Positions 14,598 through 33,105 are shown, counted from the first letter of the stretch. The stretch: 64,000 nt of DNA from an uncultured Actinomycetes bacterium (GCA_963767005.1 CAVYCN010000006.1:32001-96000); one strand, 5' to 3'. Numbers and translations are program-made. The notes: generated from the letters alone by a model not told the origin.

Positions 14598-14927
14598 ATG
14601 AAGATCTCCGAGGTCGTCGAGAAGACTGGGCTCGAGGCGCTCAACGAGTGGGAAGACGTCGACGTGGCCGGCGTCTACATCTCGGACATGGTGTCCGACA
14701 TCATCACCGGCGCGAGCGGCTGCGGCCTGCTGCTCACGCTGCAGACCCACAAGAGCCTGATCGCCGCCGCCAACCTGGTCGACGTCGAGGCCGTGGTGTT
14801 CGCCCACGGCAAGCGCCCGGCCGACGACGTACTCGAGCTCGCCGGCAAGGCCGGCATCGCCCTGTTCACGACGCCCGACCACACCTGGAAGTACGCCGTC
14901 AAGCTCTTCGAGCTCGGCATGCGCTAA
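14598..14927 (+). CDS. DRTGG domain protein
   Basis: GVYISDMVSDII, LLLTLQTHKSLIAAANL; DRTGG-like small protein. Confidence 0.8.
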   Translation: MKISEVVEKTGLEALNEWEDVDVAGVYISDMVSDIITGASGCGLLLTLQTHKSLIAAANLVDVEAVVFAHGKRPADDVLELAGKAGIALFTTPDHTWKYAVKLFELGMR

Positions 14928-15269
14928 ATGGAGCTGGCCGACATCGCCGCCGCCCTCGACTGCGCGCCGCTGACCCCACAGGACGGTGTCGGCGACATCG
15001 ACACCGTCGTGGCGTCCGACGGCATGAGCGAGATCCTCGCCTTCCACACGCCGGGCGCGGTCATGCTCACAGGGCTGACCAACATCCAGTCGGTGCGCAC
15101 CGCGGTCGTCGCCGACGTGCACGCCATCATCTACGTGCGCGGCAAGCGCCCGGCCGAGACGGCCCTCACCCTCGCTCGCGAGAAGGGCATCCCGGTGCTG
15201 TCGACCAGGCTCGGCATGTTCGAGAGCTGCGGCATCCTCTACGAGCGCGGCCTCAAGGGGGCGATGTAG
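14928..15269 (+). CDS. DRTGG domain protein
   Basis: ASDGMSEIL, LTGLTNIQSVRTA, YVRGKRP, MFESCGILYERGL. Confidence 0.85.
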   Translation: MELADIAAALDCAPLTPQDGVGDIDTVVASDGMSEILAFHTPGAVMLTGLTNIQSVRTAVVADVHAIIYVRGKRPAETALTLAREKGIPVLSTRLGMFESCGILYERGLKGAM

Positions 15270-15706
15270 TGCCCGAGGAGCTCCTCTCGCGCTCGTTCGC
15301 GGTGCACGGCCGCGACTTCGAGAAGGCCGGCGAGGCGTCGACCGAGATCAAGTCGCTGCTCAAGGAGCTCGAGGTCGACCCGAACGTCATCCGCCGCACG
15401 GTGGTGATCGCCTTCGAGGCCGAGATGAACATCGTGATGTACGCCGACGAGGGCACCGTGAGCTTCACGCTCACCGACGAGGACATCGGCATCGAAGCCG
15501 CCGACCGCGGCCCCGGCATCCCCGACCTCGACCTTGCCCTGCAGGAGGGCTGGTCGACCGCCACCGACGAGATGCGCGAGATGGGCTTCGGCTTCGGCAT
15601 GGGCCTGCCCAACATCCGGCGCAACGCCGACGCGTTCAAGGTCGACACGCGCGTGGGCCAGGGCACCACGGTGTCCACCCGCGTCAGCCTGGACGGCACC
15701 GCGTGA
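15269..15706 (+). CDS. Anti-sigma-factor-type Ser/Thr kinase (RsbW/RsbT-like HATPase)
   Basis: GTG overlaps the upstream TAG. EAEMNIVMYA, ADRGPGIPD, GWSTAT..REMGFGFGMGLPNI. Confidence 0.88.
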   Translation: MPEELLSRSFAVHGRDFEKAGEASTEIKSLLKELEVDPNVIRRTVVIAFEAEMNIVMYADEGTVSFTLTDEDIGIEAADRGPGIPDLDLALQEGWSTATDEMREMGFGFGMGLPNIRRNADAFKVDTRVGQGTTVSTRVSLDGTA

Positions 15707-17016
15707 GCGAGGCCGGCATGATCGACTACGCCCACGGCTTTCGCGTGCACGACGACCTCTGCGACGGCTGCCTGGCCTGCATGCGCCTCTGCCCCACCCA
15801 GGCGATCAGGGTGCGCGACGGCAAGGCCAGGGTGCGGGCCGAGCTCTGCATCGACTGCGGCTCCTGCCTGAAGGCCTGCACCCGCGGGGCCATCACGGCC
15901 ACCACGAGCACGCTCGACGAGTTCGCCGACTACGCCTTCAAGGTGGCGATCCCCTCGCCGGTGCTCTACGGCCAGTTCCCGCGCGAGGTGCGACCGGCGC
16001 ACATCGTCCAGGGCCTGCTCAGGGCCGGCTTCGACGCCGTCTGGGACTACGGCATCGAGCTCGGCCTGACGACGCGCGCGATCGCCGACTACGTCGACGA
16101 CTGGGAGGGCCCGCGCCCGCTCGTGAACATGAACTGCCCGGTGATCATCAGGCTCATCCAGGTCTCGTACCCGCGCATGGTCGACCAGCTCCTGCAGATG
16201 CAGCCGCCCCGCGAGCTCGCCGGCCGCGAGATCAAGGCGCGGTACTCGCGCGAGCTCGGCCTGCCGCCCGAGCGCATCGCGGCGATCTACGTGACGCCCT
16301 GCCAGGCGCGCACCATCTCGATCATCCAGCCGGCCGAGGGCGGCCGGAGCTCGCTCGACGGCACGGTCGGAATCCCGCAGGTCTACAACGCCATCCTCGA
16401 AGAGGCGCGGCGCCTGTCGGAGGCCGGCGAGCAGCCCGCCGAGACCTCACTCGTGCGCTCGTCGGGCATGCTGCGCTGGGCCACGCCGCGCGCCTTTCCC
16501 TACGCGCTGCGGCGCCACCGCTACCTGCCGGTCACCGGCCTGTCCAACGTGATCCGCGTGTTCGACGACGTCGAGCGCGGCAAGCTCAAGGACATCGACT
16601 TCCTCGAGTGCTACGCGTGCTGGGCGGGCTGCGGCAACGGCAACCTCACGGTCGACAACGTCTACGTCGGACAGGCCAAGCTGCAGACGATGATGGCCGA
16701 GCTGCCGACGACCGATCCTGTGACCCAGGCCGACATCGAGCGGCGCTACCCGCTCGAGGACTTCACGCTCGAGTTCCCCTTCGCGCCGCGCCAGCGCCCC
16801 GACTCGGGCTCGCTGCGCGACCGCGTGAGCCGGGTGAAGCAGGCCGAGGAGATCCTCGCCCTGCTGCCGGGCTACGACTGTGGCCTGTGCGGCTGCCCGT
16901 CGTGCCTGACCCTCGCCCGCGACGCGGCGGCCGGCGAGGCCGCCGCGACCGACTGCGCCGTGCTGTCGACGCAGCGCATGCGCGAGCTCCGCCGCCTCCG
17001 CCGGCGCGCCTCCTGA
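15703..17016 (+). CDS. [FeFe]-hydrogenase large-subunit-like Fe-S protein (sensory group C/D-like, degenerate H-cluster motifs)
   Basis: N-terminal 2x[4Fe-4S]. P1-like NMNCP, P2-like TPCQAR, P3-like ECYACWAGCGNG. C-terminal FeS motif LPGYDCGLCGCPSC. Confidence 0.8.
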   Translation: MSEAGMIDYAHGFRVHDDLCDGCLACMRLCPTQAIRVRDGKARVRAELCIDCGSCLKACTRGAITATTSTLDEFADYAFKVAIPSPVLYGQFPREVRPAHIVQGLLRAGFDAVWDYGIELGLTTRAIADYVDDWEGPRPLVNMNCPVIIRLIQVSYPRMVDQLLQMQPPRELAGREIKARYSRELGLPPERIAAIYVTPCQARTISIIQPAEGGRSSLDGTVGIPQVYNAILEEARRLSEAGEQPAETSLVRSSGMLRWATPRAFPYALRRHRYLPVTGLSNVIRVFDDVERGKLKDIDFLECYACWAGCGNGNLTVDNVYVGQAKLQTMMAELPTTDPVTQADIERRYPLEDFTLEFPFAPRQRPDSGSLRDRVSRVKQAEEILALLPGYDCGLCGCPSCLTLARDAAAGEAAATDCAVLSTQRMRELRRLRRRAS

Positions 17017-17292: not shown

Positions 17293-18699
17293 ATGAGCAA
17301 CGACTGGGACAGCGGCGCCCTGGAGGCTGTCGACGAGCACGTGATCGCGCGGGCGCGTCAACGCGCCCGCGCGACCGTCGCGCCGAAGCCCAACCGGATG
17401 TGGGGCACCGTCTTCCGCGTGCTCGCCTGGCTCGGCGGCATCGTCACGCTGGGTCTCGTCGCTCCGACCGTGTCGCCCCGGGACCTGTCCCTGCCGGGCG
17501 GCCTGGCCACCGACCTCGGCCGCGTGGCCGGCATGGTCGGCACCTACCTGCTCATGATCACGGTGCTGCTCATCGGCCGCATCCCGGCGGTCGAACGGGC
17601 GCTCGGTCAGGACACGCTCGTGCGCTGGCACCGGCGCCTGGGACCCTGGGTGATCGGCCTGCTCGTGGCCCACGGTCTGCTGATCACGCTGGGCTACGCC
17701 CAGGCGGTGCGCAGCGGCCTGCTGCACGAGGTCGCGACGCTGATCACCCACTTCCCCGGCATGCTGGGCGCGGTCGTCGGTCTCGGCCTCATCGTGACGG
17801 CCGGCGTCACCTCGTACCGCAACGTGCGCAAGCACCTGCGCTATGAGACCTGGTGGACCGTGCATCTCTACACGTATCTGGCCATGGCGGTCGCCTTCAG
17901 CCATCAGCTCGCCACAGGCGCGCCGTTCCTGGGCCACCCGCTGGCGCGCGCCTACTGGATCGCGCTGTGGCTGCTCACCGCCGGCGTCGTGCTCTCGTAC
18001 CGGGTGCTGCTGCCGCTGGGCCGCAGCCTCTGGCACCGGCCGCGCGTGGCCCGCGTCGAGCAGCACGCGCCCGGCGTCGTGTCGGTCGTCGTGCGCGGGC
18101 GCCACCTGAACGACCTGCCGGTGAGCGGCGGTCAGTTCATGAACTTCCGCTTCGGACGCAGCGGCCTGTGGTGGCGCGGTCACCCGTACTCGGTCTCGGC
18201 CCTGCCGGCCGGCAACGAGATGCGGATCACGGTCAAGGCCTCGGGTGAGCACAGCGCGGCGCTGGCCGAGCTCGAGCCGGGCACGCCGGTGGCGATCGAG
18301 GGTCCCTATGGAGCCTTCACCCACCACGTGCGCGAGACCGACCGCGTAGTGCTGGTCGGCGCCGGGGTCGGCGCGACCCCGGTGCGGGCCCTGCTCGAGG
18401 ACCTGCCACGGCGCGTCGACGTGGTCGTCATCCTGCGCGCCTCGAGCACCCGCGACCTCGTGCTGCGCGACGAGATCCGGCGCCTCGTCGAGCTGCGCGC
18501 CGGCCGCCTGTACCAGGTCGTCGGACCGCGCGAGCAGCGCCCGCTCGACGCCGGCCACCTGCGCCGCCTGGTGCCCGACATCGCCCAGCGCGACCTGTAC
18601 GTCTGCGGTCCGCGGGGCTTCACGGCGCGGCTCATCGACCAGGCTCGGGTGCTGGGCGTGCCCGAGGGCCGCATCCATCACGAAGACTTCGCGTTCTAG
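17293..18699 (+). CDS. Ferric-reductase-like transmembrane protein fused to an FAD/NAD-binding (FNR) domain
   Basis: Heme His motifs WHRRLG, LVAHG, VHLYTY, FSHQ. GHPYSVS, EGPYGAF, GAGVGATP, YVCGP, HHEDFAF. Confidence 0.88.
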   Translation: MSNDWDSGALEAVDEHVIARARQRARATVAPKPNRMWGTVFRVLAWLGGIVTLGLVAPTVSPRDLSLPGGLATDLGRVAGMVGTYLLMITVLLIGRIPAVERALGQDTLVRWHRRLGPWVIGLLVAHGLLITLGYAQAVRSGLLHEVATLITHFPGMLGAVVGLGLIVTAGVTSYRNVRKHLRYETWWTVHLYTYLAMAVAFSHQLATGAPFLGHPLARAYWIALWLLTAGVVLSYRVLLPLGRSLWHRPRVARVEQHAPGVVSVVVRGRHLNDLPVSGGQFMNFRFGRSGLWWRGHPYSVSALPAGNEMRITVKASGEHSAALAELEPGTPVAIEGPYGAFTHHVRETDRVVLVGAGVGATPVRALLEDLPRRVDVVVILRASSTRDLVLRDEIRRLVELRAGRLYQVVGPREQRPLDAGHLRRLVPDIAQRDLYVCGPRGFTARLIDQARVLGVPEGRIHHEDFAF

Positions 18700-18779
18700 G
18701 GGGACCCGATGGCGACGACTTCACACGCAATCACCGGGACCCCCGCCCGCCATGGTCATGACGAAGCGGAGGGACGGTC

Positions 18780-19298
18780 ATGAAACGCAAAGCAGTGGCA
18801 CCGGCGGCGGCCATCGTGGCCACGGCCGTGGGCCTGGGAATAGTGCTCGGGTACCAACCCAGCACCAAAGCGAGCGCGAGCCTGCCCGCGAACATCAAGG
18901 TGGGCTCGACCGCCGGCGTGGGCGCCGGCGCGACCGCCGTCGGCACCGACCAGGCGCTGAGCGGTGGTCTCGGCGACATCCAGGTCAGGGTGAGCGCCCT
19001 GAACGGCAAGATCACAAGCGTCGGCTTGGCCAAGCTCAACGTGCGTGGGCCGCAGTCGGCGCAGATCACCGGCAGCGTGATCCCGCAACTGATCAGCGAG
19101 ACGATGGCGTCGAACGGCGGCTCGATCCAGGCCGTGTCCGGCGCGACCTATACGAGCCAGGCGTACGGGGCCTCGCTGCAGGCCGCGCTCGACAAGATCG
19201 CCGCCACAGGAGGGTCCAATGCAGCTCTCGGAACCGGTAATGGGAACGGTAGTGTCGTTGGCAATCCGGGAGGCGGAGGCGGCTTCGGCGACGACTGA
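18780..19298 (+). CDS. Exported FMN-binding (flavinylated) protein
   Basis: Signal anchor; flavinylation motif IQAVSGATYTS. Confidence 0.88.
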   Translation: MKRKAVAPAAAIVATAVGLGIVLGYQPSTKASASLPANIKVGSTAGVGAGATAVGTDQALSGGLGDIQVRVSALNGKITSVGLAKLNVRGPQSAQITGSVIPQLISETMASNGGSIQAVSGATYTSQAYGASLQAALDKIAATGGSNAALGTGNGNGSVVGNPGGGGGFGDD

Positions 19299-20094
19299 GG
19301 GGCGCCGCGGCGCGGCGGCGATCGCCGCCGCGCCGTCCGGCGACCCGTCCGCCGCCTCGTCCGGCGACCCGTCCGTCGCCTCGTCCGCCGTCGCGGCCGC
19401 AGCGGCCCGGGCGATCGCCGTGCTGCACCACGTCGACGAGGTGTTCAGCACCTGGCAGCCCGACAGCCCCATGAGCCGCGTGCGGCGCGGCGAGATCGAG
19501 ATCGCCGCCGCGCCGCCCGAGCTCGCCGCCGTGCTCGAGCTCTGCCGCACGGCGCGCGACGCCTCGGGCGGCTGGTTCGACCCCTGGTCGATGCCGGGCG
19601 GCGTCGACCCGACCGGCCTGGTCAAAGGCTGGGCCGCCGAGCTCGCCGTGGGCCGGGTGCGCAAGGCCGCCGGCGTCGCCGGCGCGCTGATCAACGCCGG
19701 TGGCGACGTCGCCGTCTGCGGCGAGCCCGCGCCCGGTCAGCCCTGGCGTGTCGGTATCCGCCACCCGCTGGCCGTCGACCGCCTGCTCACCGTGGTCACG
19801 CTCGGCGGGCACGACCGTGCCGTGGCCACCTCGGGCAGCTACGAGCGCGGCGACCACGTGCTCGACCCGCGCTCGGGCGCGCCCGCTGCCGGTCTGCTGT
19901 CGGCCACCGTCGTCGGTCCCGATCTGGCCTTCGTCGACGCCCTCGCCACCGGCCTGTTCGCCTCGGGCGGCCGCGCCCTGCCCCGCATCGCCGGGCTGCG
20001 CGGCTACAGCGCCCTGATCGTGCAAGCCGACGGCACGACGCGAGCCACGCTCGGCTTCCCCGCCACCGAGCTCGCCGAGGTACGAGCGGCGTAA
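19219..20094 (+). CDS. apbE: FAD:protein FMN transferase
   Basis: MGTVVS, DPTGLVKGWA, INAGGDV, VATSGSYERGDHVLDPRSG, VDALATGLF. Confidence 0.9.
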   Translation: MQLSEPVMGTVVSLAIREAEAASATTEGRRGAAAIAAAPSGDPSAASSGDPSVASSAVAAAAARAIAVLHHVDEVFSTWQPDSPMSRVRRGEIEIAAAPPELAAVLELCRTARDASGGWFDPWSMPGGVDPTGLVKGWAAELAVGRVRKAAGVAGALINAGGDVAVCGEPAPGQPWRVGIRHPLAVDRLLTVVTLGGHDRAVATSGSYERGDHVLDPRSGAPAAGLLSATVVGPDLAFVDALATGLFASGGRALPRIAGLRGYSALIVQADGTTRATLGFPATELAEVRAA

Positions 20095-20865: not shown

Positions 20866-22341
20866 TCAGGGTCGCACGGCGGCCAGCTCGCCTTCGGCCT
20901 CGACGATGATCCGCCCGAGCTCGGCCGCGACCGGCGCCGGCAGCGGTGTCGGCACGTGCGTCTCGAGCAGCCGGACCGCCTCGCGCCGCGCGCGTTCGTA
21001 GACCGTCGTCGCACCGTCGGCGGCCCACTCCTCGCGGACCCGGCGATCGATCAACTGCGAGCGCGACTGGCCGCGCATGCCGCGGTAGGTGTCGTCGTGC
21101 GACAGAAAGTCGCGGAACGGCCCGACCTCGGCGATCACATCGACCGAGAGCGTCTCGTCTGAGACCGGGATCCCGGGCACGCAGAACTTGACCATGCGCG
21201 CGAACTCGGCGTCCATGACGAGCTGTGCGTAGTCGATCGTGACGCCCGATTCCAACATCCCCAGCCCGTAGATCAGGTTGGCCCCTGCCAACGCCGGCAG
21301 CAGGCTGGTGAGGGTCTTCTCGTGACCGGATTGGGCGTCGGCCACCTTGGCGTCGCCCTACGCACCGGCGACCCAGCTCGGCAGCAGGTAGAAGCGCGCC
21401 AGGCAGGCCACCCCGGCGCCGATCATGCCGCACTCGGGGCTGCCCACCGAGGCGCTCGCGAAGCGCAGGTCCATGGCCGTCGTCGAGGAGCCGTAGATGA
21501 CGGGTGCGCCGCGCGTCGTGAGCTGCGCGAGCGTGATGCCGGCCAGCACCTCGGCGTTGTGGGTGACGAGCGTGCCGGCCAGGCTGACCGGCGACGAGCC
21601 GCCGGCCATGGCCATCGACAGCACGTTGACCGGCACGCCGGCGCGCGCCCCCTCGATGATGATGTGACAGGCGTCGGCGACCAGCTTGAGCGGGCTCACC
21701 GGGCAGGTCAGGAACGAAAGCAGCGGGCGCCGGCGTAGCGCTTCGCGGCCGCCGGCGATGGCCGCCGCCATGTCGATCATCGCGCGGGCGCAGAAGCCCG
21801 TGAGCGGACCGATCGTCGCGTGCTTCGTGGTGTTCGCGAAGATCGCCTCGGCGTTGTGCAGCGGCGCGGTGTCGGGCGGCACGTCGTGGGCGCCCAGGGG
21901 CCGCTCGACGACGTCGATCTCGGGCAGCGCGTCGATGATCCTCGTGCAGTCGGCGACGTCGCACTTACGCGACTCGTGCAGCTCGCCGGTCCGCGGGTCG
22001 ACGACCTGGATGCCCTCGCCGAAGTTGGTGAAGCCGACGCGGCCGTCCTCGAGCACGACGTCGCGGGCCGGGTCGCGTCCGCAGAGCACGACCGAGGAAG
22101 GCGCCGAGCGGACCGCGTCTTCGACCAGGTGCGCCGGCAGGCGCACCACGCTCGAGTCGCGGTCGACCTCGGCGCCGGCCGCCGCGAAGATGTCGCGGGC
22201 TTCGCCGTCTTCGACGAACACGCCGGTGCGCGCCAGCACCTCGAGTGTCGCCGAGTGGATCTCGTGCAGCTCGTCGTCGGTGAAGACCTCGAGCCGAAAG
22301 CCGCCGCTCGCTCGCGCGCCGGCCCGCGGGTTGCGCCTCAT
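20866..22341 (-). CDS. mttB: Pyrrolysine-containing trimethylamine:corrinoid methyltransferase (491 aa, in-frame TAG at codon 328)
   Basis: ORFs 21358..22341 and 20866..21345 share a frame, separated only by TAG 21358-21360. Read-through gives [49 protein letters not shown], matching the Pyl context of methanogen MttB. Confidence 0.95.
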
Positions 22342-22396: not shown

Positions 22397-23803
22397 CTAG
22401 CGCACGCGGCTCGTCGGGGCCGTGCGCTCGCGGAACCGCTCGACGCAGTTGATCGGCAGGTCGAGCACCCGGGCGATGTTCACCTTGGCCTCGATCATGT
22501 TCGCCTGCGCCGGCTGGCTGATCGCGTAGCTGTGGATGCGGCCGAAGCCGTGCTCGTTGCGCACGTCGGTCATGACGACCGGGTCGGACAGGTCGAACGA
22601 CGTCACGCCGAGCCTGTCGGCCACGTACTGCTTGGCCTGCGCGAGACGCATGCCGCGGGTCATCTGCGCGCGAGCGACCAGATCTCCGGCCGCCCGCATG
22701 CCGCCCATGCCCGCCGCCTGCGCATGCGCGTTGTGCATGCCGTGCGGATCGCCCGAGCCCACCTACAAGCCGTCGAGGCGCAGCAGGTCGACGAACGACT
22801 TGGCGGCCCTGCAGACGGCGTCGCCCGGCGGATGCACGAACATCGGCACTGCGCCGACGCCCATGCCGGCGTTCATGTGCACGGGGATCGTGGCGACCGC
22901 CATGCAGGGCTTGACGATGGCGATCGCGCGCGCCACGTTCCAGGCGCAGCTCTTACCGGTGTTCACGTTGACGACCGGGCCGAACATGGTGGCGCCGGCC
23001 TGCTGGGCCAGCAGGAGCTGGTCTTTGGGCCACAGGCCGGCCAGGCGCACGCCCTCGTAGGTGAGCTCGCCGTGCATGCCGAGCACGAACTCGCCCGCCA
23101 TGCCGAGCTGCACGCCGAGGTCGGGGTACTTCTGACGGATGATCGCGGTGGCGCGCAGCGCGGCCAGGAACTCGGGGTCGCCCGAGGCGCCGGTCGTGTC
23201 CCAGTCGATCGCGTCGGCGCCGGCCTCGTACTGCGAATCGGCGAGGTGCACCATGTCGAGGACAGCCATCTCGACCGCCTCTTCTTCGGCCGCCCGCGCC
23301 TCGGCGATCTTGCCCAGCGGCAGCAGCTCGTTCCAGTTGTCGCAGGGGCCGTCCGGTTTGGAGTACAGCCCGAGGTTGGGCATCACGCCGTACTGCAGGG
23401 GCGCCACCGTGGCGAGCAGCGCGTCGTGCATGCACTGCGCCTCGTAGGCGAGGATCGTGCGCACGACCTTGAGCGAGTAGTCGCCGACGCACAGCTCGAG
23501 CAGGTCGGCGCCCATCCACTGCTCGTAGGCCTGCAGATCCTGCAGGCGCGTGGCGTGGGTCTTCATGCCGGTGCCGTCGCAGGAGAGCACGACCTCGTCG
23601 CCCACGTCGACGCCGGTGAAGCGCGCCGGCGAGGCGTAGATGTCGAGCAGGTGGTCGATCTCGTCGGCCGCCAGCGGCGCCACCTTGGCGCGTTTGGCCG
23701 CCGCCTCGGACCCCGCCTCGAGGTCGGCCCTGATCTCGTCGCGGGTCATCCGCACGAACATGCCGTCGGCCATACGCGTCGGCACCCTGGGCTCGCCGCT
23801 CAC
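22397..23803 (-). CDS. mtbB: Pyrrolysine-containing dimethylamine:corrinoid methyltransferase (468 aa, in-frame TAG at codon 347)
   Basis: GTG 23803 after GGAGGGAGG; N-terminal TRMADG. ORFs 22763.. and 22397..22762 abut across TAG 22763-22765, giving LRLDGL-O-VGSGDPHGM...GMRAAGDLVAR, the MtbB Pyl context. Confidence 0.95.
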
Positions 23804-23894: not shown

Positions 23895-23950
23895 TAACCG
23901 ACCGGTCAATCAGTGCGCGCCTATCATCGCGCCGGCCGGGTCCGTGTCAA
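23895..23950 (-). promoter_or_regulatory. Promoter and TetR-type operator of mtbB-mttB
   Basis: TTGACA on - strand (23950-23945). Operator TAACCGACCGGTCAATCAG (23895-23913) is identical to 40664-40682. Confidence 0.75.
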
Positions 23951-24480
23951 GGGACATCCGCGCCGCGCGCCGGCTCGAGGCGCACGATGGCCTCGCCCTC
24001 CCACTCGAAGTTCACCTTGTCGACCCGCAGGATGTGCCAGGTCTCGGTGTCGGCGATGCCCTCGATCTTCTCGAGCTCCTCGTTCAGAAACCGGTAGAGG
24101 CCCTCGTTGTCGGGCAGGTGGGCCTCGATCAGGATGTCGAAGGAGCCTGTCGTGTAGCCCACGTATGAGACCGCCTCCATGGCCGCCAGGGCGGCCCCCA
24201 CGCCCTTGGCAAAGCCGCGGTGCACACGGATGCCGACCATGGCATCGACGGGGTAGCCGATCGCGGCCGGGTTCACGCGGGCCATGGGCAGGATCGCCCC
24301 CTGGCTGATGAGGCGCTCCACCCGGTTGCGCGCGGTCGGCTCGGACACGCCCACGGCGCGCGCGATGCTCGCATACGAACGCCGCGAGTTGGCGCGCAGC
24401 AGGCGCACGATGTGGCGGTCGAGCTCGTCGAGCTCGACGACCCCGAACGGCGCCTCGCCCGCCCTGATCACGCCGCCCAC
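23947..24480 (-). CDS. Lrp/AsnC family transcriptional regulator
   Basis: LDELDRHIVRLLRANSRRSYASIARAVGVSEPTARNRVERL; TTGSFDIL in the RAM domain. Exact start uncertain. Confidence 0.92.
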   Translation of the reverse strand: MGGVIRAGEAPFGVVELDELDRHIVRLLRANSRRSYASIARAVGVSEPTARNRVERLISQGAILPMARVNPAAIGYPVDAMVGIRVHRGFAKGVGAALAAMEAVSYVGYTTGSFDILIEAHLPDNEGLYRFLNEELEKIEGIADTETWHILRVDKVNFEWEGEAIVRLEPARGADVP

Positions 24481-24810: not shown

Positions 24811-26304
24811 GTGAAGGCGAGCACGACCTGGCTCAGCGACGCGGAGAAGAACGCCATCGCCGACCACGCCCTCGAGGTGCTCGCCACCACCGGCATGCGC
24901 TTCGCCGGCTCGCGGGTCCTGCCCCTGCTCGCCGAGCAGGGCGCCGCGGTCGACCGTGCGCGCGGCCTTGCTCGCTTGCCGCGCGAGCTCGTCGAGCGGT
25001 CGCTCGCCGCCTGCCCGCGCTCGTTCGTCATGGGCGGCGCCACGCCGGCCGACGACGTCGCGCTCGGCACCGGCGAGGCCTTTCACTTCACGCCCAGCGG
25101 CTGCGTGGCCAAGACGCTCGACCGGCAGAGCGGCCGGCGCCGCCCGAGCACGCTCCAGGACCTGCGCGACTGCACCGGCCTCATGGACGAGCTGCCCGAG
25201 ATGGACGTCATGTCGACCCAGGTCAGCGCGACCGACGTCGGCCTTGAGCGCCGCGAGCTGCTCGAGTACTTCACCATGCTCACCGAGACCACCGAGCACG
25301 TCTCGTTCATCGACTGCCCGCACGAGGTCGACGCCGTGCTGCGCCTGTGCGACGTGCTCGGCGAGGCCGCCGGCTTTGCCGAGCGGCCGCGCTTCTCCAC
25401 GGTGTGCACCATCGCCTCGCCGCTGCAGGTCGACGGCGGGGCGCTCGACGTGCACCTCGCCCTGGCGCCGCGCGGCGTGCCGGTCGAGGTCTACTCCATG
25501 ACGATCGCCGGCGCGACCTCGCCGGTCACGCTGGCCGGCACCGTCGTCCAGGCGGTGGCCGAGTTCCTCGGCGTGGCCACCGCCTTTCAGGTGGCGGCCC
25601 CCGGCGCGCGCCTCGTGTTCTGCTTCGGCTCCGGCGTGCTCGACATGGTGCGCACGACCTTCTCGCTCGGCTGCGTCGAGAGCGGCCTCATGGCAGCCAT
25701 GGCCACCGAGGTCGGCCACCACCTCGGCGTGCCCACCCTCAACCCCGCGCTGTCGACCGACGGCAAGCACCCCGGCGTGCAGGCCGGCTACGAGAAGGCG
25801 CTCAAGGCGGCCACCGTCTGCGCCGCCAACCCCGACCTCGTGTCGGGCTGGGGCCTGATCGACTCGCACAACACGATGTACCTGCCGCAGTCGGTCATCG
25901 ACAACGAGATCGCCGCCATGGTGCGGCGCCTGTGCGCGCCGGTCGACGTGAGCGAGGCCAGCCTCGCCGGCGACTCGATCGCCCGCGTCGGGCCCGGCGG
26001 CGGCTTTCTGCGCGAGAAGGACACGGCGCGGCGCATCCGCGCCGGCGAGCACTTCCTGCCGACGGTCTCGAACCGGCTCTCCTACGACCAGTGGCTCGCC
26101 GAAGGTCGTACCGAGGTCGACGCCGCCGCCGCGCGAGTCGACGAGCTGCTCGCGCGGCACCACGCGCGCGGCCCGCTGCTGCCCGCCGACCAGCTCGACG
26201 AGATCGCCGCCATCTGCCGGGCGGACCCCGGCAGCGTCCTCTGGGCGCGGCGCGAGGAGCGCCGCGACCGCCCGCGTCCCACGCCAGGAACGGAGGCACC
26301 GTGA
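24811..26304 (+). CDS. Non-pyrrolysine trimethylamine methyltransferase family (MttB superfamily, MtgB-like) protein
   Basis: IAGATSPVTLAGTVVQAVAEFL. PTLNPALSTDGKHPGVQAGYEK has Ser where the paralogue has Pyl. ARVGPGGGFL. Confidence 0.9.
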   Translation: MKASTTWLSDAEKNAIADHALEVLATTGMRFAGSRVLPLLAEQGAAVDRARGLARLPRELVERSLAACPRSFVMGGATPADDVALGTGEAFHFTPSGCVAKTLDRQSGRRRPSTLQDLRDCTGLMDELPEMDVMSTQVSATDVGLERRELLEYFTMLTETTEHVSFIDCPHEVDAVLRLCDVLGEAAGFAERPRFSTVCTIASPLQVDGGALDVHLALAPRGVPVEVYSMTIAGATSPVTLAGTVVQAVAEFLGVATAFQVAAPGARLVFCFGSGVLDMVRTTFSLGCVESGLMAAMATEVGHHLGVPTLNPALSTDGKHPGVQAGYEKALKAATVCAANPDLVSGWGLIDSHNTMYLPQSVIDNEIAAMVRRLCAPVDVSEASLAGDSIARVGPGGGFLREKDTARRIRAGEHFLPTVSNRLSYDQWLAEGRTEVDAAAARVDELLARHHARGPLLPADQLDEIAAICRADPGSVLWARREERRDRPRPTPGTEAP

Positions 26305-27221
26305 GCAGCACGATCGGCTACATCGGTCTCGGCAGTCTCGGCCGCCACCTCGCCGCCAGCCTGCTGCGGGCCGGCTTCGCGGTCACCGTCAACGACATCG
26401 ACCGCGACGCGGCCGGCCCGCTGCTCGAGGCCGGCGCGGCCTGGGCCGACTCGCCGGCAGCCGTAGCGCGCGCCGCCGGCACGGTGATCACCTGCCTGCC
26501 GTCGCCCGCCGCCGTGGCGAGCGTGGTGGCCGGCCCCGCCGGCGTCCTCGACGACCTCGCCGCCGGCGGCACCTGGATCGACATGAGCACGAACGACGCC
26601 CACGAGCTGCAGCGTCTGGCCGCCCTCGCCGCCGAGCGCGGCGTGGCCACGCTCGAGGCGCCGGTCACGGGTGGCGTGCACCGCGCCGCGGCCGGCATGA
26701 TCACCGTCCTGGTCGGCGGCGACGAGGCCGTCTATCACGCCCACCTGCCGGCCTTCGAGGCGATGGGCGGTCGCGTCTTCTACATCGGCGAGCTCGGCAA
26801 GGCATCGGTGATCAAGGTGATCACCAACATGCTGGCCTTCATCCACCTGGTGGCCGACGGCGAGGCGCTCATGCTGGCCAAGCGCGGCGGCGTCGACCTG
26901 AAGCTCGCCTGGGACGTGATCAAGGCGAGCTCGGGCAACAGCTTCGTGCACGAGACCGAGGGCCAGCTCATCCTGAGCGGCAGCTACAACATCAACTTCA
27001 CCATGGACCTCGCCCGCAAGGACCTGCACTTCGCCCTGGGCATGGGCCACGAGTTCGGCGTGCCACTCGAGCTCGCCGGCTTGACCGAGCAGATCTTCGC
27101 CCGGGCGCGGGCCACCTACGGCGGCGACGCGCAGTCGCCCATGGTCGCCAAGCTGCTCGAAGACGCGGTGGGCACCGACCTGCGCGCGCCCGGCTTTCCG
27201 GCCGAGCTGGCCCCCGAGTGA
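26301..27221 (+). CDS. NAD(P)-dependent oxidoreductase, 3-hydroxyisobutyrate dehydrogenase family
   Basis: GTG 26301 overlaps the upstream stop. IGYIGLGSLG, TCLPSP, EAPVTGG, IKVITN, FTMDLARKD. Confidence 0.9.
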   Translation: MSSTIGYIGLGSLGRHLAASLLRAGFAVTVNDIDRDAAGPLLEAGAAWADSPAAVARAAGTVITCLPSPAAVASVVAGPAGVLDDLAAGGTWIDMSTNDAHELQRLAALAAERGVATLEAPVTGGVHRAAAGMITVLVGGDEAVYHAHLPAFEAMGGRVFYIGELGKASVIKVITNMLAFIHLVADGEALMLAKRGGVDLKLAWDVIKASSGNSFVHETEGQLILSGSYNINFTMDLARKDLHFALGMGHEFGVPLELAGLTEQIFARARATYGGDAQSPMVAKLLEDAVGTDLRAPGFPAELAPE

Positions 27222-27393
27222 CGGCTCGCGGGCTCGATGCACGAAGGCCCCCTGGTGACGGCTCGCGGGTTCGTGCACAGGGGCCCGCGCAAGACGTAGA
27301 ATGTCGTCGCGGCATCCTTCGACGGCAGAAGGTTCGCCGCGAGCGCACACACGACGAATTTTCGGCACATGGCCGGCACGGAAGGAGCGCTTC

Positions 27394-28170
27394 ATGGAGA
27401 TCACCGAGTTCGCGATGGATTTCTTCTCGCTCGCGGGCAGGAACGCCATCGTGACCGGCGGCAACACCGGCCTCGGCAAGGCCTTCGCCCTGGCCCTCGC
27501 CAAGGCCGGCGCCAACGTGCTCGTGCCGAGCATCGTCGACGACGACGGCAGCACCGGAGCGCTCATCGCGGCCGCCGGCGTGCGCTACGAGTTCATGAAG
27601 GCCGACATCACCGCGCCCGGCGTGCCGGCGCGCGTCGTCGACGCCTGCGTAGAGCGTTTCGGCCGCCTCGACGTCCTGGTCAACAGCGCCGGCGTCTGCC
27701 CGCTGGCCGCCGTGCTCGACTTCGGCCGCGAGCTCTGGGACCGCACGATCGCGGTCAACCTCACCGCCGCGTTCGAGATGAGCCACGAGGCCGCGCGCCA
27801 CATGGTGCCCCAGCGCAGCGGCAAGATCATCAACGTCTGCTCGGTCTTCACCTTTTTGGGCGGGCAGTGGTCGCCGGCCTACGCGGCCTCCAAGCACGGC
27901 ATCGCCGGCCTCACCAAGGCCTACTGCGACGAGCTCGCCCAGTACAACGTGCAGGTCAACGGGCTCGCCCCCGGGTACTACGCGACCGAGATCACCCGCC
28001 AGACGCGCAGCGACCCGGTGACCAACCAGCGAGTGCTCGACCACATCGCGACCGCACGCTGGGGCGACCCGGCCGACCTCATGGGCACCGTCGTGTTCCT
28101 CGCCAGCCGCGCGTCCGACTACGTGAACGGCCACGTGCTGCTGGTGGATGGCGGCTACCTCGTCCGCTAG
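27394..28170 (+). CDS. ygcW: SDR oxidoreductase, YgcW-like
   Basis: MDFFSLAGRNAIVTGGNTGLG, GGQWSPAYAASKH, NQRVLDHI, VDGGYLVR; recognised as close to E. coli YgcW. Confidence 0.85.
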   Translation: MEITEFAMDFFSLAGRNAIVTGGNTGLGKAFALALAKAGANVLVPSIVDDDGSTGALIAAAGVRYEFMKADITAPGVPARVVDACVERFGRLDVLVNSAGVCPLAAVLDFGRELWDRTIAVNLTAAFEMSHEAARHMVPQRSGKIINVCSVFTFLGGQWSPAYAASKHGIAGLTKAYCDELAQYNVQVNGLAPGYYATEITRQTRSDPVTNQRVLDHIATARWGDPADLMGTVVFLASRASDYVNGHVLLVDGGYLVR

Positions 28171-28181
28171 GCTGGAACGCG

Positions 28182-29621
28182 ATGGCAGGCACCAAGTACC
28201 TGGTCGGCGTCGACGGGGGCTCGCAGAGCTCCAAGGTCGTCGTCTTCGACATCGGCGGAACAGTGGTCTGCGAGGGCCGTCGCGGGCTGCAGCCCATGAG
28301 CCGGCCGCGCAACGGCATCGTCGAGCACCCCGACGACGACCTGTGGGACTCGATCTGTGCCGCCAGCCGCGAGGCCATGGCGGCCTTCCCCGGCGATCCG
28401 GCCGACATCGTCGGCATCGGCCTCTGCACGATCCGTTGCGAGCGTGCCTTCCTGAAAGCCGACGGCACGCTCGCTGCGCCGGGCATGAGCTGGATGGACG
28501 AGCGCGCCTACCAGCCCTGGACCTATCCGGTGCCGGGCACCGCCTGGGTGACGACCTCGTCGGGCTACATCACGCACCGCTTCACGGGGCGCTTCCGCGA
28601 CACGGCCGCCAACAACATCGAGATCCAGTGGCCGATCGACAGCGACACCTGGCAGTGGAGCGACGACCCGGCCGTGCTCGACGCCTGGCAGATCCCGCGC
28701 GAGATGCTGGTGGAGCTGCAGCTCCCCGGCGAGGTGGCCGGCTACGTCACCCCCGCGGCGGCCGCCGCGAGCGGCCTGCCGGCCGGCGTACCGGTCGTGC
28801 AGACGGCCAACGACAAGGCGGTCGAGGCGCTCGGCGCGGGCTCGCTCGACGACCGCACCGCACTGGTGTCGCTCGGCACCTACATCGCGGCCATGCTGCA
28901 CGGCAGCGAGAACCGCAAGACGCCGACCGAGTTCTGGACGAACTTCGCCTGCGTGCCGCACCGCTACCTCTACGAGAGCCACGGCATCCGCCGCGGCATG
29001 TGGACGCTCTCGTGGTTCCTCGACCTGCTCGGCGACGAGCTCGCCCGGGCGGCCGTCGCCGAGGGCGTGTCGCGCGAGGAGTACCTGGAGCGTGAGGCGC
29101 GCGCGGTGCCGCCCGGCAGCGACGGCCTGATGACCGTGCTCGACTGGCTCGCGCCCGCGGACCACCCCTTCCGCAAGGGCGTCATGCTGGGCTTCGACGC
29201 GCGCCACACGCGGGGGCACGTCTACCGTTCCATCCTCGAGGCCATCGCCGTGACCATGAAGAACCGGGTCGACGCGATGTGCGCCGAGCTCGGCGTCACG
29301 CTCGAGTCGATCGTCGTGTCGGGCGGCGGCTCGAGCAGCCCGCTCTTCATGCAGATCTTCGCCGACGTGTTCGGCATCCCGGCGGCGCGCACGGTCGGCG
29401 CCTCGGGCGCGAGCCTCGGGGCGGCCGTTTGCGCGGCCGTGGCGACCGGTGTCCACCCCGACTTCGGCACGGCCGCCGCCGCGATGAGCGGCGCGCGCGA
29501 GTCGTTCGCGCCGCGCGCCGACGCCACGGCCGTCTACCGCGCCCTGAACGACGCCGTCTACCGCGACATCCGGACGGCCACCGACCCGCTGCTCGAGCGG
29601 TCGTACCCCATCTTCCACTGA
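28182..29621 (+). CDS. ygcE: FGGY carbohydrate kinase, YgcE-like
   Basis: GVDGGSQSSKV, EHPDDDLW, DKAVEALGAG, SLGTYIA, GLMTVLDWL. Confidence 0.85.
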   Translation: MAGTKYLVGVDGGSQSSKVVVFDIGGTVVCEGRRGLQPMSRPRNGIVEHPDDDLWDSICAASREAMAAFPGDPADIVGIGLCTIRCERAFLKADGTLAAPGMSWMDERAYQPWTYPVPGTAWVTTSSGYITHRFTGRFRDTAANNIEIQWPIDSDTWQWSDDPAVLDAWQIPREMLVELQLPGEVAGYVTPAAAAASGLPAGVPVVQTANDKAVEALGAGSLDDRTALVSLGTYIAAMLHGSENRKTPTEFWTNFACVPHRYLYESHGIRRGMWTLSWFLDLLGDELARAAVAEGVSREEYLEREARAVPPGSDGLMTVLDWLAPADHPFRKGVMLGFDARHTRGHVYRSILEAIAVTMKNRVDAMCAELGVTLESIVVSGGGSSSPLFMQIFADVFGIPAARTVGASGASLGAAVCAAVATGVHPDFGTAAAAMSGARESFAPRADATAVYRALNDAVYRDIRTATDPLLERSYPIFH

Positions 29622-29655
29622 CCAGATCCAGCCCCGAGCCACGGAAGGATCCATC

Positions 29656-31098
29656 ATGCAGCTGAGCCGAGAAGCGATCGTCGAGGGCCTGCAGCGCATC
29701 GTCGGCGCCTCCGACGTGGTCACCGACGCGGCCGTCCTCGCCGAGAGCAGCGTCGACAACTTCCGTAAGCTCGAGAACATCTTCGGCGTGCACACCATGC
29801 CACAGCCAGCGGCCGTGGTCATGGTGCGCAGCACGGAGCAGGTCGCCGCCGTGCTGGCCTTCGCCGACGAGCACGGCGTGAACGTCGTGCCGCGCACCGG
29901 CCACACGGCCACCGAGGGCGGCCTCGAGACACCCGTGCCCGACTCGATCGTGCTCGACGGCTCGCCGATGAACCGCATCATCGACATCGACACCTACAAC
30001 ATGCAGGCGACCTGCCAGTGCGGCGTGCCGCTGCAGGCCCTCGAGGACCGCGCCCGCGAGCTCGGCCTGACGACCGGCCACTCGCCCCAGTCCAAGCCGG
30101 TCGCCCACCTCGGCGGCCTCACGGCGACGCGCAGCATCGGCCAGTTCTCGACCCTCTACGGCGGCATCGAGGACATGGTCGTGGGCGTCGAGGCGGTGTT
30201 CCCCGGCGGCCGCGTGGCGCGCATCAAGAACGTGCCGCGACGCGCGGCCGGCCCCGACATCCGCCACATCGTGATCGGCAACGAGGGCGCCCTCTGCTTC
30301 ATCACCGAGGTGACGGTCAAGCTCTTCCCCTACTTCCCGCAGAACAACAGCTTCCTGGGGTACACGCATCGCGGCATGAAGGTCGGCTTCGAGGCGCTGC
30401 GCGAGGTCATGGTCGGCGGCTACAAGCCGTCGGTCGCGCGCATCTACGACCCCGGCGACGCCGACCTGCACTTCTCGCACTTCATCGCGCCCGGCGACTG
30501 CGTGCTGCTGTTCATGGCCGAGGGACCGGCCGGCATCGCGCAGGCCACGGTCGAGGGCATCGAGGCGATCGTCGCCCGTCACCCCGAGTGTCACCAGGTC
30601 GACGGCCGCTACATCGAGACCTGGTTCAACGACCTCTGCTGGGGGCCCGACAAGATCGCCGCCGAGGACGAGCGCATCAGGCAGACACGCAACGTCAACC
30701 GCACGACCGAGATCTCGGCCAACTGGAGCGCGATCAACGACATCTACGAGGCCGCCATCGGCCGCATCACGAACGAGATCCCCGACCTGACGAGGCTCGG
30801 CGGCCACTCGTCGCACAGCTACATCAACGGCACCAACATGTACTTCAACTACTTCTACAACCTGGTCGACTGTGGCCCCGAGGACGAGCCCACCAGGTAC
30901 TACCTGCCGATCATCAGGATCATCTGCGAGGAGACGCTGCGCTGCGGCGGCTCGATCGTGCATCACCACGGCATCGGCAAGGCACGCGTGCCGTGGGTGA
31001 AAGACGAGTACGGCTCGTCGTACTTCATGCTCGAGACGCTCAAGCGGGGGTTCGACCCGCACGGCATCATGAACAAGGGCACGATCCTGCCGGCATAG
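29656..31098 (+). CDS. ygcU: FAD-binding oxidoreductase, YgcU / alkyl-DHAP-synthase-like
   Basis: GHSPQSKP, TRSIGQFSTLYGGIED, KNVPRRAAGPDIRH, GGHSSHSY, HHHGIGK. Confidence 0.88.
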   Translation: MQLSREAIVEGLQRIVGASDVVTDAAVLAESSVDNFRKLENIFGVHTMPQPAAVVMVRSTEQVAAVLAFADEHGVNVVPRTGHTATEGGLETPVPDSIVLDGSPMNRIIDIDTYNMQATCQCGVPLQALEDRARELGLTTGHSPQSKPVAHLGGLTATRSIGQFSTLYGGIEDMVVGVEAVFPGGRVARIKNVPRRAAGPDIRHIVIGNEGALCFITEVTVKLFPYFPQNNSFLGYTHRGMKVGFEALREVMVGGYKPSVARIYDPGDADLHFSHFIAPGDCVLLFMAEGPAGIAQATVEGIEAIVARHPECHQVDGRYIETWFNDLCWGPDKIAAEDERIRQTRNVNRTTEISANWSAINDIYEAAIGRITNEIPDLTRLGGHSSHSYINGTNMYFNYFYNLVDCGPEDEPTRYYLPIIRIICEETLRCGGSIVHHHGIGKARVPWVKDEYGSSYFMLETLKRGFDPHGIMNKGTILPA

Positions 31099-31121
31099 AG
31101 CGCGACGCGAGGACGAACGTC

Positions 31122-31961
31122 GTGAGCGAGCTGCGCATCCTGGTGGCGTTCAAGGTGACGCCCGACTTCGAGGCGCTGCGCGACGCCGAGTGGGCCGCCC
31201 TGGCGGCCGGCGCCGGCGACACGCGGTTCGTCAGGCGCGTGCTCAACTGCTTCGACGAGAGCGCCCTCGAGCTGGCGCTGCGGCTGCGCCGCGACCTCGC
31301 GGCCGCCGGCGTCAGCGCCACCCTGGCCGCGCTGTCGGTCGGCGGCCGCGAGGTCGACCCCTTCCTCGCCACGCTACGGGCGCTCGGCTACGAACGCACG
31401 GCGCGGGTCGAACCCGGGCCGCACGCGGCCGCCCTCGACTTCGCGCCGGGCGCCGTGGCGGCGCTGATCGCCGCCTACGCCCGGCGCGTCGCGCGCAGCG
31501 ACCTCGTCGTGCTCGGCAGCCGCAGCGGACCCGGCGACGGCGGCACGGTGCCCTTCCGCGTCGCCGAGGCGCTCGGCCTGCCCTGCCTGGCCCAGGTCAC
31601 CGAGCTCGCGGCCCTGACAGACGGCCGGGTGCGCGTCGCGCGCGCGGCCGACGACGGCCTGCTGCGGCTCACCCTGAACGGCCCCTGCGTGCTCGGCGTG
31701 GGCAACGCCGTGGTCTCGTGCCTGAGCGCGCCGACCCTGAAGGAGCGCCTCGCCCACCACGACGAGCCGCCCGAGGTGCTGAGCGATGCCGAGCTCGGCG
31801 TCGACCTCGACGCCGAGCTCGGGCGCGCCGGCGTGGCGCTGACCGGCCTCGAGACGATCGACCGCTCGCGCGCCGGTGCGCTCGTCGGCGGCGCGACGCC
31901 GGCTGACGCGGCGCGCCGCCTCTACGACGGCTGGCTGCGCCCTCTGCTGGAGAAGTCGTGA
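31122..31961 (+). CDS. Electron transfer flavoprotein beta subunit (FixA/YgcR-like)
   Basis: ILVAFKVTPD, NCFDESALELAL, LVVLGSRSGPGDGGTVPFRVAEALGLP. Confidence 0.85.
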   Translation: MSELRILVAFKVTPDFEALRDAEWAALAAGAGDTRFVRRVLNCFDESALELALRLRRDLAAAGVSATLAALSVGGREVDPFLATLRALGYERTARVEPGPHAAALDFAPGAVAALIAAYARRVARSDLVVLGSRSGPGDGGTVPFRVAEALGLPCLAQVTELAALTDGRVRVARAADDGLLRLTLNGPCVLGVGNAVVSCLSAPTLKERLAHHDEPPEVLSDAELGVDLDAELGRAGVALTGLETIDRSRAGALVGGATPADAARRLYDGWLRPLLEKS

Positions 31962-32004
31962 GCGGGCGCCACGACCGGCGACTCGGCACTCGTGCGGAGA
32001 AGCC

Positions 32005-33101
32005 GTGAGCGGCACCGCGCTGCGCTTCGTCGCCCTGCTCGACGGCACGACCGCCGGCGCTGCCGGTCAGGCGCGCGCCCTGGGCGCCTTCATCGACGGC
32101 CTGTCGACGACCGCCGCGACGGTCTCGGGCGAGACCGTCGTCTTCTGCGCCGACCCGGTCGCCGGCCGCGAGCTCGCCGACCTCGCACCGACCAGCGACG
32201 TGCGGCTCGTCGCGACGCCGGCCCGCCGACCCGAGCTCATGGTCGAGCGCCTGCTCGCGTCCGGCGCCGCCGGCGCCGACCTCTACCTGGCCGGGCCGGG
32301 CTCGACCGGCGCCGAGCTCGCCACGCGCCTCGCCTGCCGTGCCGGCGGCGGCGCCTTGACGGGCGTCGTCGACCTCCGCCTTGCCGGCGAGACGGCGCGC
32401 TGCCACGCCGCCGTGTGCTCCGGCCACCTGACCGGAAGCTTCGACCTCACGCGGCGACCCTGGTGTCTGAGCCTCGACGCCGCCTGGGCCGACGAGCGGC
32501 CCGCAGCACCTGCCGAGCACCGCGTGCTGTCCGGCGGCCCGGACGGGGTCGCAGCCGGCGAGTCGAGCGACGCCGCGCCGGCGGCGGCGCGGAGCGCGGC
32601 CGCCTCTCTCGGCGACGAAGGTCCGCTCGTTGAGCCCTTCGCCGACGTCGAGCTCGTCGCGCCGGCGGCGGCCAGCGACCTCGCGGGAGCCCGCTTTCTC
32701 GTAGTCGCCGGCTACGGCGCCGGCCGCGACGGCGTCGCCCGCCTGGCCGCCGCGGCGCGCCGCATGGGGGCGGCCTTCGGCGTGAGCCGCCCGGTCGCGA
32801 TGAACGCCTGGGCGCCGCTCGACCGACTGGTCGGCGCCTCGGGAGCACGCAGCGCGCCGCTCGTGTGCGTCGTGGCGGCCGCCTCGGGCGCACCGGCGCT
32901 GTACTGGGGGATCGAACGGGCCGGCTTCGTCGCGGCGGTCAACTCAGACGAGCATGCCCCCATCGCGCGCAAGGCCGACGCCGTCGTGGTCGACGACGCC
33001 GTCGCCGTGGTCGAGGCCCTCGCCGAGATCGTGGAGTCGCAGCCGCGCGGCGCTAGCGCGCCGCCCGCCGGCGGTCCGCGCCCGCAATCCGTTCGCTCGG
33101 G

Positions 33102-33105
<4 letters not shown>
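32005..33105 (+). CDS. Electron transfer flavoprotein alpha subunit (FixB/YgcQ-like)
   Basis: GTG 32005 after GGAG. LVVAGYG, FGVSRPVAMNAW, VGASG, ASGAPA, AVNSDEHAPI. Confidence 0.85.

Follow-up and report, generated by a model that had tools for sequence, protein, structure and literature searches.

In the minus strand of a 64,000-nucleotide stretch of DNA from an uncultured Actinomycetes bacterium (GCA_963767005.1, CAVYCN010000006.1:32001-96000; referred to below as the window), a gene of the dimethylamine:corrinoid methyltransferase family, mtbB (22397..23803, 468 codons), carries at codon 347 an in-frame TAG (22763..22765) that, given its conservation and the point at which the Rfam model PYLIS_2 starts, we are highly confident codes for pyrrolysine (Pyl). 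The gene is intact and the part after the amber codon is under purifying selection. Comparison of related genes further shows that synonymous sites in mtbB, and in the methylamine methyltransferase genes mttB and mtmB, are held so as to keep a predicted stem of at least five to seven pairs with an A-G-purine-N loop, and so as to keep UUG or UUA wherever the residue that precedes Pyl is leucine. We consider it probable, taking the parts together, that the Pyl TAG lies in an intact mtbB and that UUG and the hairpin tilt this codon toward read-through. A cis element for the bacterial Pyl UAG was expected in 2007, when none had been found (PMC1976440); in 2024 the way in which a cell tells a Pyl UAG from a stop UAG was stated to be unresolved (bioRxiv 10.1101/2024.09.30.615893) and, in 2025, no mechanism for targeted Pyl insertion was said to be known (PMC12626013).

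The original prediction, which was made from the window's sequence alone, had placed an in-frame amber codon at codon 347 of mtbB and had equated it with the catalytic Pyl position. The codon and its place in the Pyl column are borne out; a catalytic role and dimethylamine specificity would hold by analogy with the Methanosarcina enzymes. Counted from the GTG start at 23803, which has a strong Shine-Dalgarno-like sequence (GGAGGGAGG) ahead of it on the minus strand at 23818-23810, the TAG is codon 347, and the minus strand around it (TAG at 22765-22763) reads GAC GGC TTG TAG GTG GGC TCG GGC GAT CCG. When the frame is read through the TAG, it matches PF09505 with 540.1 bits (frame residues 23-474, model positions 4-462 of 463) and TIGR02368 with 406.6 bits against a cut-off of 369.1, both matches being above their cut-offs. 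PYLIS_2, a model that starts at the Pyl UAG of mtbB, aligns over its positions 1-100 from exactly this TAG (57.9 bits, cut-off 36), although scores for PYLIS_2 and for the corresponding mttB model, PYLIS_3, largely reflect coding conservation. The TAG stands on the Pyl column in all 79 covering loci of a set of 80 related mtbB loci, one of which does not cover that column; nearly all are from Thermoleophilia, Actinomycetes or Actinomycetota metagenome-assembled genomes. The genome has eight mtbB paralogues, each with a single TAG in the same column (8/8), and a single TAG is likewise found in 150 of 150 class-wide MtbB matches among the matches listed, 76 more being known to exist. A misalignment with the Pyl column was thus looked for and not seen, and the further claim that the amber codons are not chance nonsense changes agrees with the counts for the 79 loci and the eight paralogues.

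It is possible in principle that the TAG is a real stop, mtbB being either a pseudogene or a pair of proteins with a restart at the GTG that directly follows, and TAG is indeed a common stop in this genome. We give this explanation a negligible probability, in view of the conservation of the TAG, the presence of the pyl genes, and purifying selection on both sides of the codon: the ratio of non-synonymous to synonymous substitution rates (dN/dS) against the window mtbB, as a median over 52 orthologues, is 0.24 upstream and 0.21 downstream of the TAG, so that the relaxed selection which the original prediction had named as a refutation is not found. The alignments of 77 of the 79 relatives extend beyond residue 440. 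The following GTG is not a start, because the codon after the Pyl TAG varies among relatives (GTG, GTC, GTA, GTT, GCG) and thus encodes Val or Ala by variation. A TAG elsewhere in the genome that looks like genuine nonsense (C13:18131) is absent from its orthologues and is without a hairpin. The gene's own terminal TAG (22397..22399, minus strand) serves as an internal control, being a true stop without a hairpin; TGA takes its place in 71 of 79 relatives.

The predicted structure of MtbB also bears on the real-stop explanation, since according to the model a cut at the TAG would land inside the last barrel strand. An AlphaFold2 model built with 54 sequences (window 22400-23773) has a predicted local distance difference test score of 89.3 and eight TIM-barrel strands, and the Pyl position (model residue 337) is predicted to lie on the eighth of these (335-338). 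Fold matches of the model span residues 57-380, that is, across the TAG. The best match to a solved structure is the Hcy domain of MetH (Z 18.0, root mean square deviation 3.6, 249 aligned residues), and further near folds include an M. mazei methyltransferase (4ay7) and uroporphyrinogen decarboxylases (Z 16-18, MetH included). No solved MtbB was found by sequence search. MttB and MtmB are not among the 50 listed fold matches, which excludes nothing. By analogy with the Methanosarcina enzymes, Pyl on the eighth strand would activate dimethylamine or a related amine, MtbB would pass the methyl on to a corrinoid protein whose gene lies elsewhere, and the neighbouring MttB would do likewise for trimethylamine.

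The genome has the means to read the codon. A tRNA-Pyl with a CUA anticodon is detected by ARAGORN at C3:242986-243058 (C numbers denote contigs), and pylB, pylC, pylD and separate pylSc and pylSn genes all score above their NCBIfam cut-offs. In a sample of 201 class genomes, 41 have MtbB and 40 have PylSc, every PylSc genome being one of the 41, although kin among these genomes are not independent. The mtbB TAG is almost certainly read as Pyl by the genome's own tRNA-Pyl and its split PylSc/PylSn synthetase. A Pyl-type mttB was found in two of 401 genomes in a draw from the phylum.

At the same time TAG remains a normal stop in this genome, and the candidates for Pyl are limited to methylamine methyltransferases. 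In the codon-model gene calls made for this analysis, TAG ends 928 of 2,860 genes, about a third; the sequence that follows TAG stops is not coding-like (28 of 625 are above threshold, mostly where the next gene is in frame), and release factor matches of the sizes of RF1 and RF2 are present, the names being assigned from size. There are 16 Pyl genes: eight mtbB, seven mttB with TAG (out of 41 MTTB matches) and one mtmB with TAG (out of four). A family-blind scan of 964 in-frame TAGs passed 15, namely 14 known methyltransferases and one unlikely frame; its filters missed two known mttB copies. Two other candidates for recoding were rejected. The in-frame TAG at C13:18131 mentioned above, which lies in a solute-binding gene (C13:17276-19066), is missing in orthologues of 77% and 76% identity and has no hairpin after it; it is a nonsense change or an assembly error. 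A TGA within an MttB match (C10:37067) is the upstream stop, at the edge of the match, and is off the Pyl column. This situation differs from that of the archaea with genetic code 34 (bioRxiv 10.1101/2024.09.30.615893), which share the Pyl machinery but in which, according to that source, all TAG codons are Pyl.

The first conserved feature of the mRNA around the mtbB TAG is the rare leucine codon TTG immediately 5' of it (22766..22768, minus strand), a conserved synonymous choice. In the window gene and its 79 relatives codon -1 is TTG in 76, TTA in two and CTG in one, with a Tyr codon in the last, such that TTG or TTA accounts for 78 of 79 leucine codons. By comparison, TTG and TTA make up only 0-6 of 60-80 codons at 25 other conserved Leu columns of mtbB, and together about 2% of leucine codons genome-wide. 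The same preference holds in Pyl mttB genes that have Leu at -1 (24/24) and in mtmB (12/12).

The second feature is a predicted apical RNA hairpin at +65 to +94 (22669..22698, minus strand; plus signs denote nucleotides or codons after the TAG), with the loop AGAU at 22685-22682 (+78 to +81). An extension of it, a lower stem of about +46..+56 with +100..+111 (22652..22717, minus strand), is suggested by RNAalifold and by the fold of the window copy; its support is weaker, and its pair +54:+102 ranks 3 of 6,670. The GC content at third codon positions (GC3) of mtbB, otherwise about 0.95, is down to 0.59-0.74 over codons +20 to +40. In 80 of 80 genes GGA stands at codon +26, its A opening the AGAY loop at +78, whereas GGA is used for only 51 of 4,201 Gly-before-Asp codons genome-wide. 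An earlier indication from synonymous heterozygosity that a PYLIS element was absent was rejected, as that measure rose where third positions turn A/T-rich after the TAG, and the GC3 profile and codon tables overruled it. A long-range pairing proposed by RNAalifold, which would bury the mtbB UAG, was also set aside, as it has no covariation support in mtbB.

For covariation the mtbB set was enlarged by 40 class-level loci (38 usable) and by a pattern scan of metagenomes (at least 122 stretches, of which 80 were listed and 77 had enough sequence). From these 77, three non-MtbB stretches and one with an indel were dropped, and seven with Ile, Val or Phe at -1 were set aside. In the resulting 187 distinct genes, whose GC3 ranges from 0.26 to 1.0, codon +26 is GGA without exception (187/187). 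The pair +72:+87 is the top pair by mutual information with average product correction (APC-MI; z 24), being CG in 72, AU in 34, GC in 24, UG in 21 and UA in 18, and three more stem pairs are within the top eight. In the seven genes set aside, which resemble the named methanogen rows discussed below, +72:+87 is paired in none and GGA is present in three. Over 141 distinct mtbB segments 90.1% of the cells at stem positions are paired. The corresponding figure is 80.6 +/- 0.5 when the segments are shuffled (500 times) and 29-50% for slid controls, a comparison that is inflated by relatedness. Relatedness is taken into account in a tree of 227 mtbB genes (232 were found, five with upstream indels being dropped, and Leu or Tyr at -1 was required), on which +72:+87, having 14 compensated co-changes, comes first among 6,670 wobble pairs; of eight changes at +84 seven are compensated, and the loop A has undergone no change, against 43-83 changes at nine other Gly wobble columns. 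It is very likely, on this comparative evidence, that the mtbB hairpin is real and under selection.

Two other explanations of the conserved stretch should be considered here. One is that hairpin and UUG are by-products of a self-complementary peptide motif and of codons from a donor of lower GC content. It is true that the stem is partly present in methanogens and that the window mtbB has no excess stability over codon-resampled sequence (z 0.11 for +45..+105 and -0.23 for +60..+120); only geometry and loop, and not stability, stand out in this copy, because the peptide motif is self-complementary by itself. However, the compensated co-changes fall on 14 independent branches, the loop A is unchanged where comparable columns are not, the rest of mtbB is fully GC-adapted (GC3 about 0.95), and the element holds across a GC3 range of 0.26 to 0.98, so that a by-product is highly unlikely and has largely been refuted already. 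The other is that the stretch acts as DNA, as a binding site for a regulator of, for example, the Lrp/AsnC type; the two arms do form an inverted repeat, if an imperfect one, and there is an Lrp/AsnC gene upstream. Against this, G-U pairs are frequent in the stem (+75:+84 is U-G in 39 genes) and one, +76:+83, is invariant (G-U in 187/187), and the sequences of the arms differ among mtbB, mttB and mtmB while pairing is kept. A DNA site therefore seems an even remoter prospect than a by-product.

The mttB gene next to mtbB (20866..22341, minus strand, 491 codons; TIGR02369 722.8 bits, cut-off 525) carries a single TAG, at codon 328 (21358..21360, minus strand), inferred to encode Pyl: in an alignment it falls on residue 334 of the M. 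barkeri protein (7XCM), which is Pyl334 (PMC9842639), and PYLIS_3 scores 71.7 bits against a cut-off of 38. Thus the order along the transcript region is Pyl TAG, stop TAG, Pyl TAG. MtbB and MttB had been described in the original prediction as non-homologous, and a lack of sequence homology is stated in PMC9842639. In 77 Pyl mttB genes a six-pair stem with an AGGN loop at +72 is predicted, which in the window is GUUGGC-AGGG-GCCAAC at +66 to +81 (21277..21292, minus strand; loop at 21286-21283). It is kept by TTG in 73 of 77 and GCA in 76 of 77, a combination that occurs in none of 229 other ALAG motifs, and in three cases a change of Asn to Ser is accompanied by a change of the Leu codon to CTG, which keeps the pair. 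The window mttB segment is more stable than codon-resampled sequence (z -3.3). After the TAG, GC3 dips in 52 Pyl mttB genes (0.78-0.90) but not in 90 non-Pyl homologues (0.94-0.96). Other codons of mttB are also nearly invariant: at codon -2 (window 21366-21364) Gly is GGT in 34 of 35 Ala-type genes, and codons +37 and +39 (within window 21249-21241) are fixed as TCG and GTC, each in 52 of 52.

In mtmB the loop A is found at +114 in 11 of 12 genes, although the codons concerned specify four different amino acids, and nine of the 12 have a perfect stem; a frameshifted copy (L324) that is left out of this set keeps the hairpin. The three genes can be set against true stops by means of a descriptor that requires a stem of at least five pairs and an A-G-purine-N loop at +66..+84. 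It matches after 14 of the 15 called Pyl TAGs of the genome, the fifteenth being the mtmB with its loop at +114, and after six of 797 TAG stops, 15 of 1,536 TGA stops, one of 99 TAA stops and 97 of 20,000 random coding positions. A sixteenth Pyl gene, missed by the gene caller, also carries the hairpin.

That the hairpin or the UUG acts on read-through is, on these patterns, somewhat better than an even proposition, and there is a good deal to be weighed against it and against the reading of which it forms part. To the lack of excess stability in the window mtbB can be added the partial circularity of the figure of 14/15, as the descriptor was derived from the same genes. The closest relative (L020) has a dN/dS of 0.49 downstream against 0.09 upstream of the TAG, on few changes, none of which is non-synonymous within 40 codons of the TAG. 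Covariation is weak in mttB, with no stem pair in the top 30 by mutual information and one compensated pair. The -1 codon is not universal, the 77 mttB genes including GCG in 39, GGT in 10, GGC in two and TAC in two. The spacing of the loop varies (+72, +78, +114) and is far beyond the ribosome footprint. One Pyl mttB (L290) has no hairpin and one mtmB (L106) has a shifted variant in place of the standard form, while among named organisms the hairpin is missing from four of eight Firmicute mttB genes (one of Desulfitobacterium and three Desulfosporosinus copies), Acetohalobium having only four pairs, and the full stem with an AGAC loop is present in three of 16 methanogen mtbB genes, and so is not confined to bacteria (PMC3639795). 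Reporter genes take up Pyl without a cis element (PMC2933860, PMC12626013). When 22 pyl-region loci were clustered in a search for a trans factor, nothing beyond pyl genes, corrinoid proteins and a radical SAM gene emerged, and no candidate factor is common to the pyl neighbourhoods; an unlinked factor would escape this search. Finally, the window contains no corrinoid gene, 16 corrinoid-protein matches being found elsewhere in the genome.

Several of these points suit a different explanation, in which Pyl is inserted by plain amber suppression, as a substrate-tuned competition of tRNA-Pyl with release factor 1 (RF1). The hairpin would then be real but would shield the mRNA that follows a leaky UAG, and that carries few ribosomes, against Rho or nucleases, set a pause, or bind a regulator that senses read-through. 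The long and variable distance of the hairpin from the UAG, the bacterial Pyl genes that have no hairpin and the failure to find a dedicated factor all fit such a scheme, as does the fact that Pyl insertion is possible without a motif and that the pyl genes are substrate-tuned in M. acetivorans (PMC12626013). On the other side, the same loop occurs in three unrelated genes, and only in their Pyl-containing members, which points to the decoding step, as does the separate constraint on the P-site codon; a polarity shield, moreover, would not obviously require an invariant loop A. We regard plain suppression as a credible alternative that is nevertheless unlikely to be the full account.

If UUG and the hairpin do favour read-through, the loop might be a recognition site for a factor or for the ribosome and, together with the codon in the P site, might lead to less release by RF1 or to more delivery of Pyl-tRNA; the hairpin would act as an enhancer and not as an absolute requirement. 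A stronger version can be envisaged, in which the A-G-purine-N tetraloop hairpin, 70-115 bases downstream, is a true bacterial insertion signal that arose separately in three unrelated genes and is bound by a specific factor which delivers Pyl-tRNA or holds off RF1, with help from the P-site UUG. This we put forward tentatively, considering it rather doubtful on the sequence patterns. A candidate for the loop-binding factor is PylSn, the RNA-binding half of the synthetase, which in bacteria is a free protein. As for a specialized elongation factor, none of nine PF00009 matches in the genome is in the pyl cluster, although an unlinked factor would escape this comparison too. The nearest precedent is the bacterial selenocysteine insertion sequence (SECIS), which like the Pyl hairpin lies inside the coding sequence, 3' of the recoded stop, and has a conserved loop. 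The SECIS, however, follows its UGA immediately and has a dedicated elongation factor, SelB (PMC1976440, PMC12626013), whereas the Pyl hairpin is 72-114 nucleotides away and no factor is known for it.

It should be noted that Pyl-type mtbB and mttB in Actinobacteriota are already known, having been reported as expressed by metagenome-assembled genomes of this phylum from Stordalen Mire (PMC10805028), so that mtbB itself is ordinary; what is new is the conserved mRNA context, a variant of the PYLIS idea. The genes and the phylum are the same in the Stordalen Mire report, and bog_752 is among the close relatives used here (L023). The available text of that report devotes one sentence to these genes and describes neither a set of pyl genes nor an expansion of paralogues nor a signal in the mRNA. 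The PYLIS models are based on 100-nucleotide windows of mostly methanogen genes (two of 18 mtbB rows are bacterial), and no common structure was found for mttB (PMC3639795). Rfam RF02509 (PYLIS_2) already draws the same apical hairpin in mtbB, whereas RF02510 (PYLIS_3) does not draw the GUUGGC/GCCAAC hairpin of mttB, and the mtmB hairpin at +114 falls outside the 100-nucleotide window. A shared loop, tree-based covariation, a bias in the -1 codon and a comparison with true stops are all absent from the available text of PMC3639795. In the literature searched, which did not extend to subscription journals and preprint supplements, we found no report of a shared bacterial loop or of a -1 codon bias.

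Breadth across lineages rests on metagenome contigs and on the named rows of supplement 2 of PMC3639795, which were compared by eye. In that supplement both bacterial mtbB rows, Acetohalobium and Desulfosporosinus, carry the hairpin; among methanogen mtbB genes the loop A is present in six of 16 and +75:+84 is paired in seven of 16. The six pairs of the mttB stem are found in three of eight bacterial genes, namely Thermincola, with a compensatory change, and two of Desulfosporosinus, and in none of ten archaeal genes, two of which have four pairs and the loop. As to the protein, the window gene resembles the known Methanosarcina and bacterial MtbB in having a single in-frame amber codon followed by (I/V)GxGDP, as in the named methanogen genes, and in lying beside a Pyl mttB. 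It differs in its host, an actinobacterium of about 71% GC with eight mtbB paralogues, and in having no adjoining corrinoid gene. Relative to the two paralogues with the highest PF09505 scores, the clade of the window mtbB lacks 11 residues near the first strand and has four to five additional ones near the C-terminus.

Selection at silent sites is easy to see in this genome, which has 71% GC and 16 Pyl genes and in which TAG is the stop of a third of the genes. The conserved context singles out exact silent positions, namely one loop base, two wobble pairs and one leucine codon, which makes the question directly testable. If the element works, it would permit site-selective amber suppression in engineered bacteria; if it is a true insertion signal, it would do in bacteria for the 22nd amino acid what the SECIS does for selenocysteine, and it would be a portable tag by which amber suppression could be made site-selective. 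The mtbB gene is present, mostly in several copies, in 34 of 36 sampled members of the family-rank lineage. Its homologues in databases are mostly called as proteins of 346 amino acids, truncated at the position of the TAG, and because gene callers cut MtbB at this point, the extent to which the lineage competes with methanogens for methylamines is underestimated.

The Lrp/AsnC-family regulator gene upstream of mtbB (23947..24480, minus strand) is near mtbB orthologues in many loci. Beyond it, a divergent cluster (24811..33105, plus strand) encodes a non-Pyl MttB homologue, an NAD-dependent dehydrogenase, an SDR protein, an FGGY kinase, an FAD-linked oxidase and two electron-transfer flavoprotein subunits; its first five genes stay beside mtbB in many orthologous loci. 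It may be a source of di- and trimethylamine, formed from a quaternary amine, and it may resemble the ygc genes of E. coli. Across 48 orthologous loci, a Pyl mttB lies within 2.5 kb of mtbB in 35 and a corrinoid gene follows mtbB in six.

The genome as a whole has an expansion of methyltransferases, with 41 MTTB matches (seven with TAG), eight mtbB, four mtmB (three without TAG) and 16 corrinoid proteins, together with two pterin-binding matches and a RamA-like match below its cut-off. Acetogenesis is not claimed because cdhC/acsB have no match in the genome. An RNA run (word share 0.06) was rejected as evidence of expression, its contigs being mostly less than 95% alike and so derived from relatives. 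On contig C4, a region at 545000-554400 (L101) has a second pylB (430 bits, over the cut-off) with a Pyl mttB, a corrinoid gene, two permease-like genes and a pylD-like gene. It has 63-67% GC against 71% for the contig, its mttB has the same TTG and hairpin, and it is possibly a later acquisition. A tRNA-Sec and a dehydrogenase-like frame are also present (the two loci being C19:163119-164171 and C4:389248-389345). The frame continues for 553 codons past a TGA in the context HCART*HAPT, which we take to be a motif of selenocysteine-containing formate dehydrogenases; both expansions of the code, Pyl and selenocysteine, are likely to be present in this one genome.

Elsewhere in the window there are two sets of genes for redox proteins. 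The first (13140-17016 and 8637-13156) encodes an Fe-hydrogenase-like 4Fe-4S protein, two DRTGG proteins and a histidine-kinase-like ATPase, and adjoins large oxidoreductase subunits. The second (17293-20094, plus strand), which comprises a ferric-reductase-like membrane protein, an FMN-binding protein and ApbE, is an electron transfer set of the flavinylation type.

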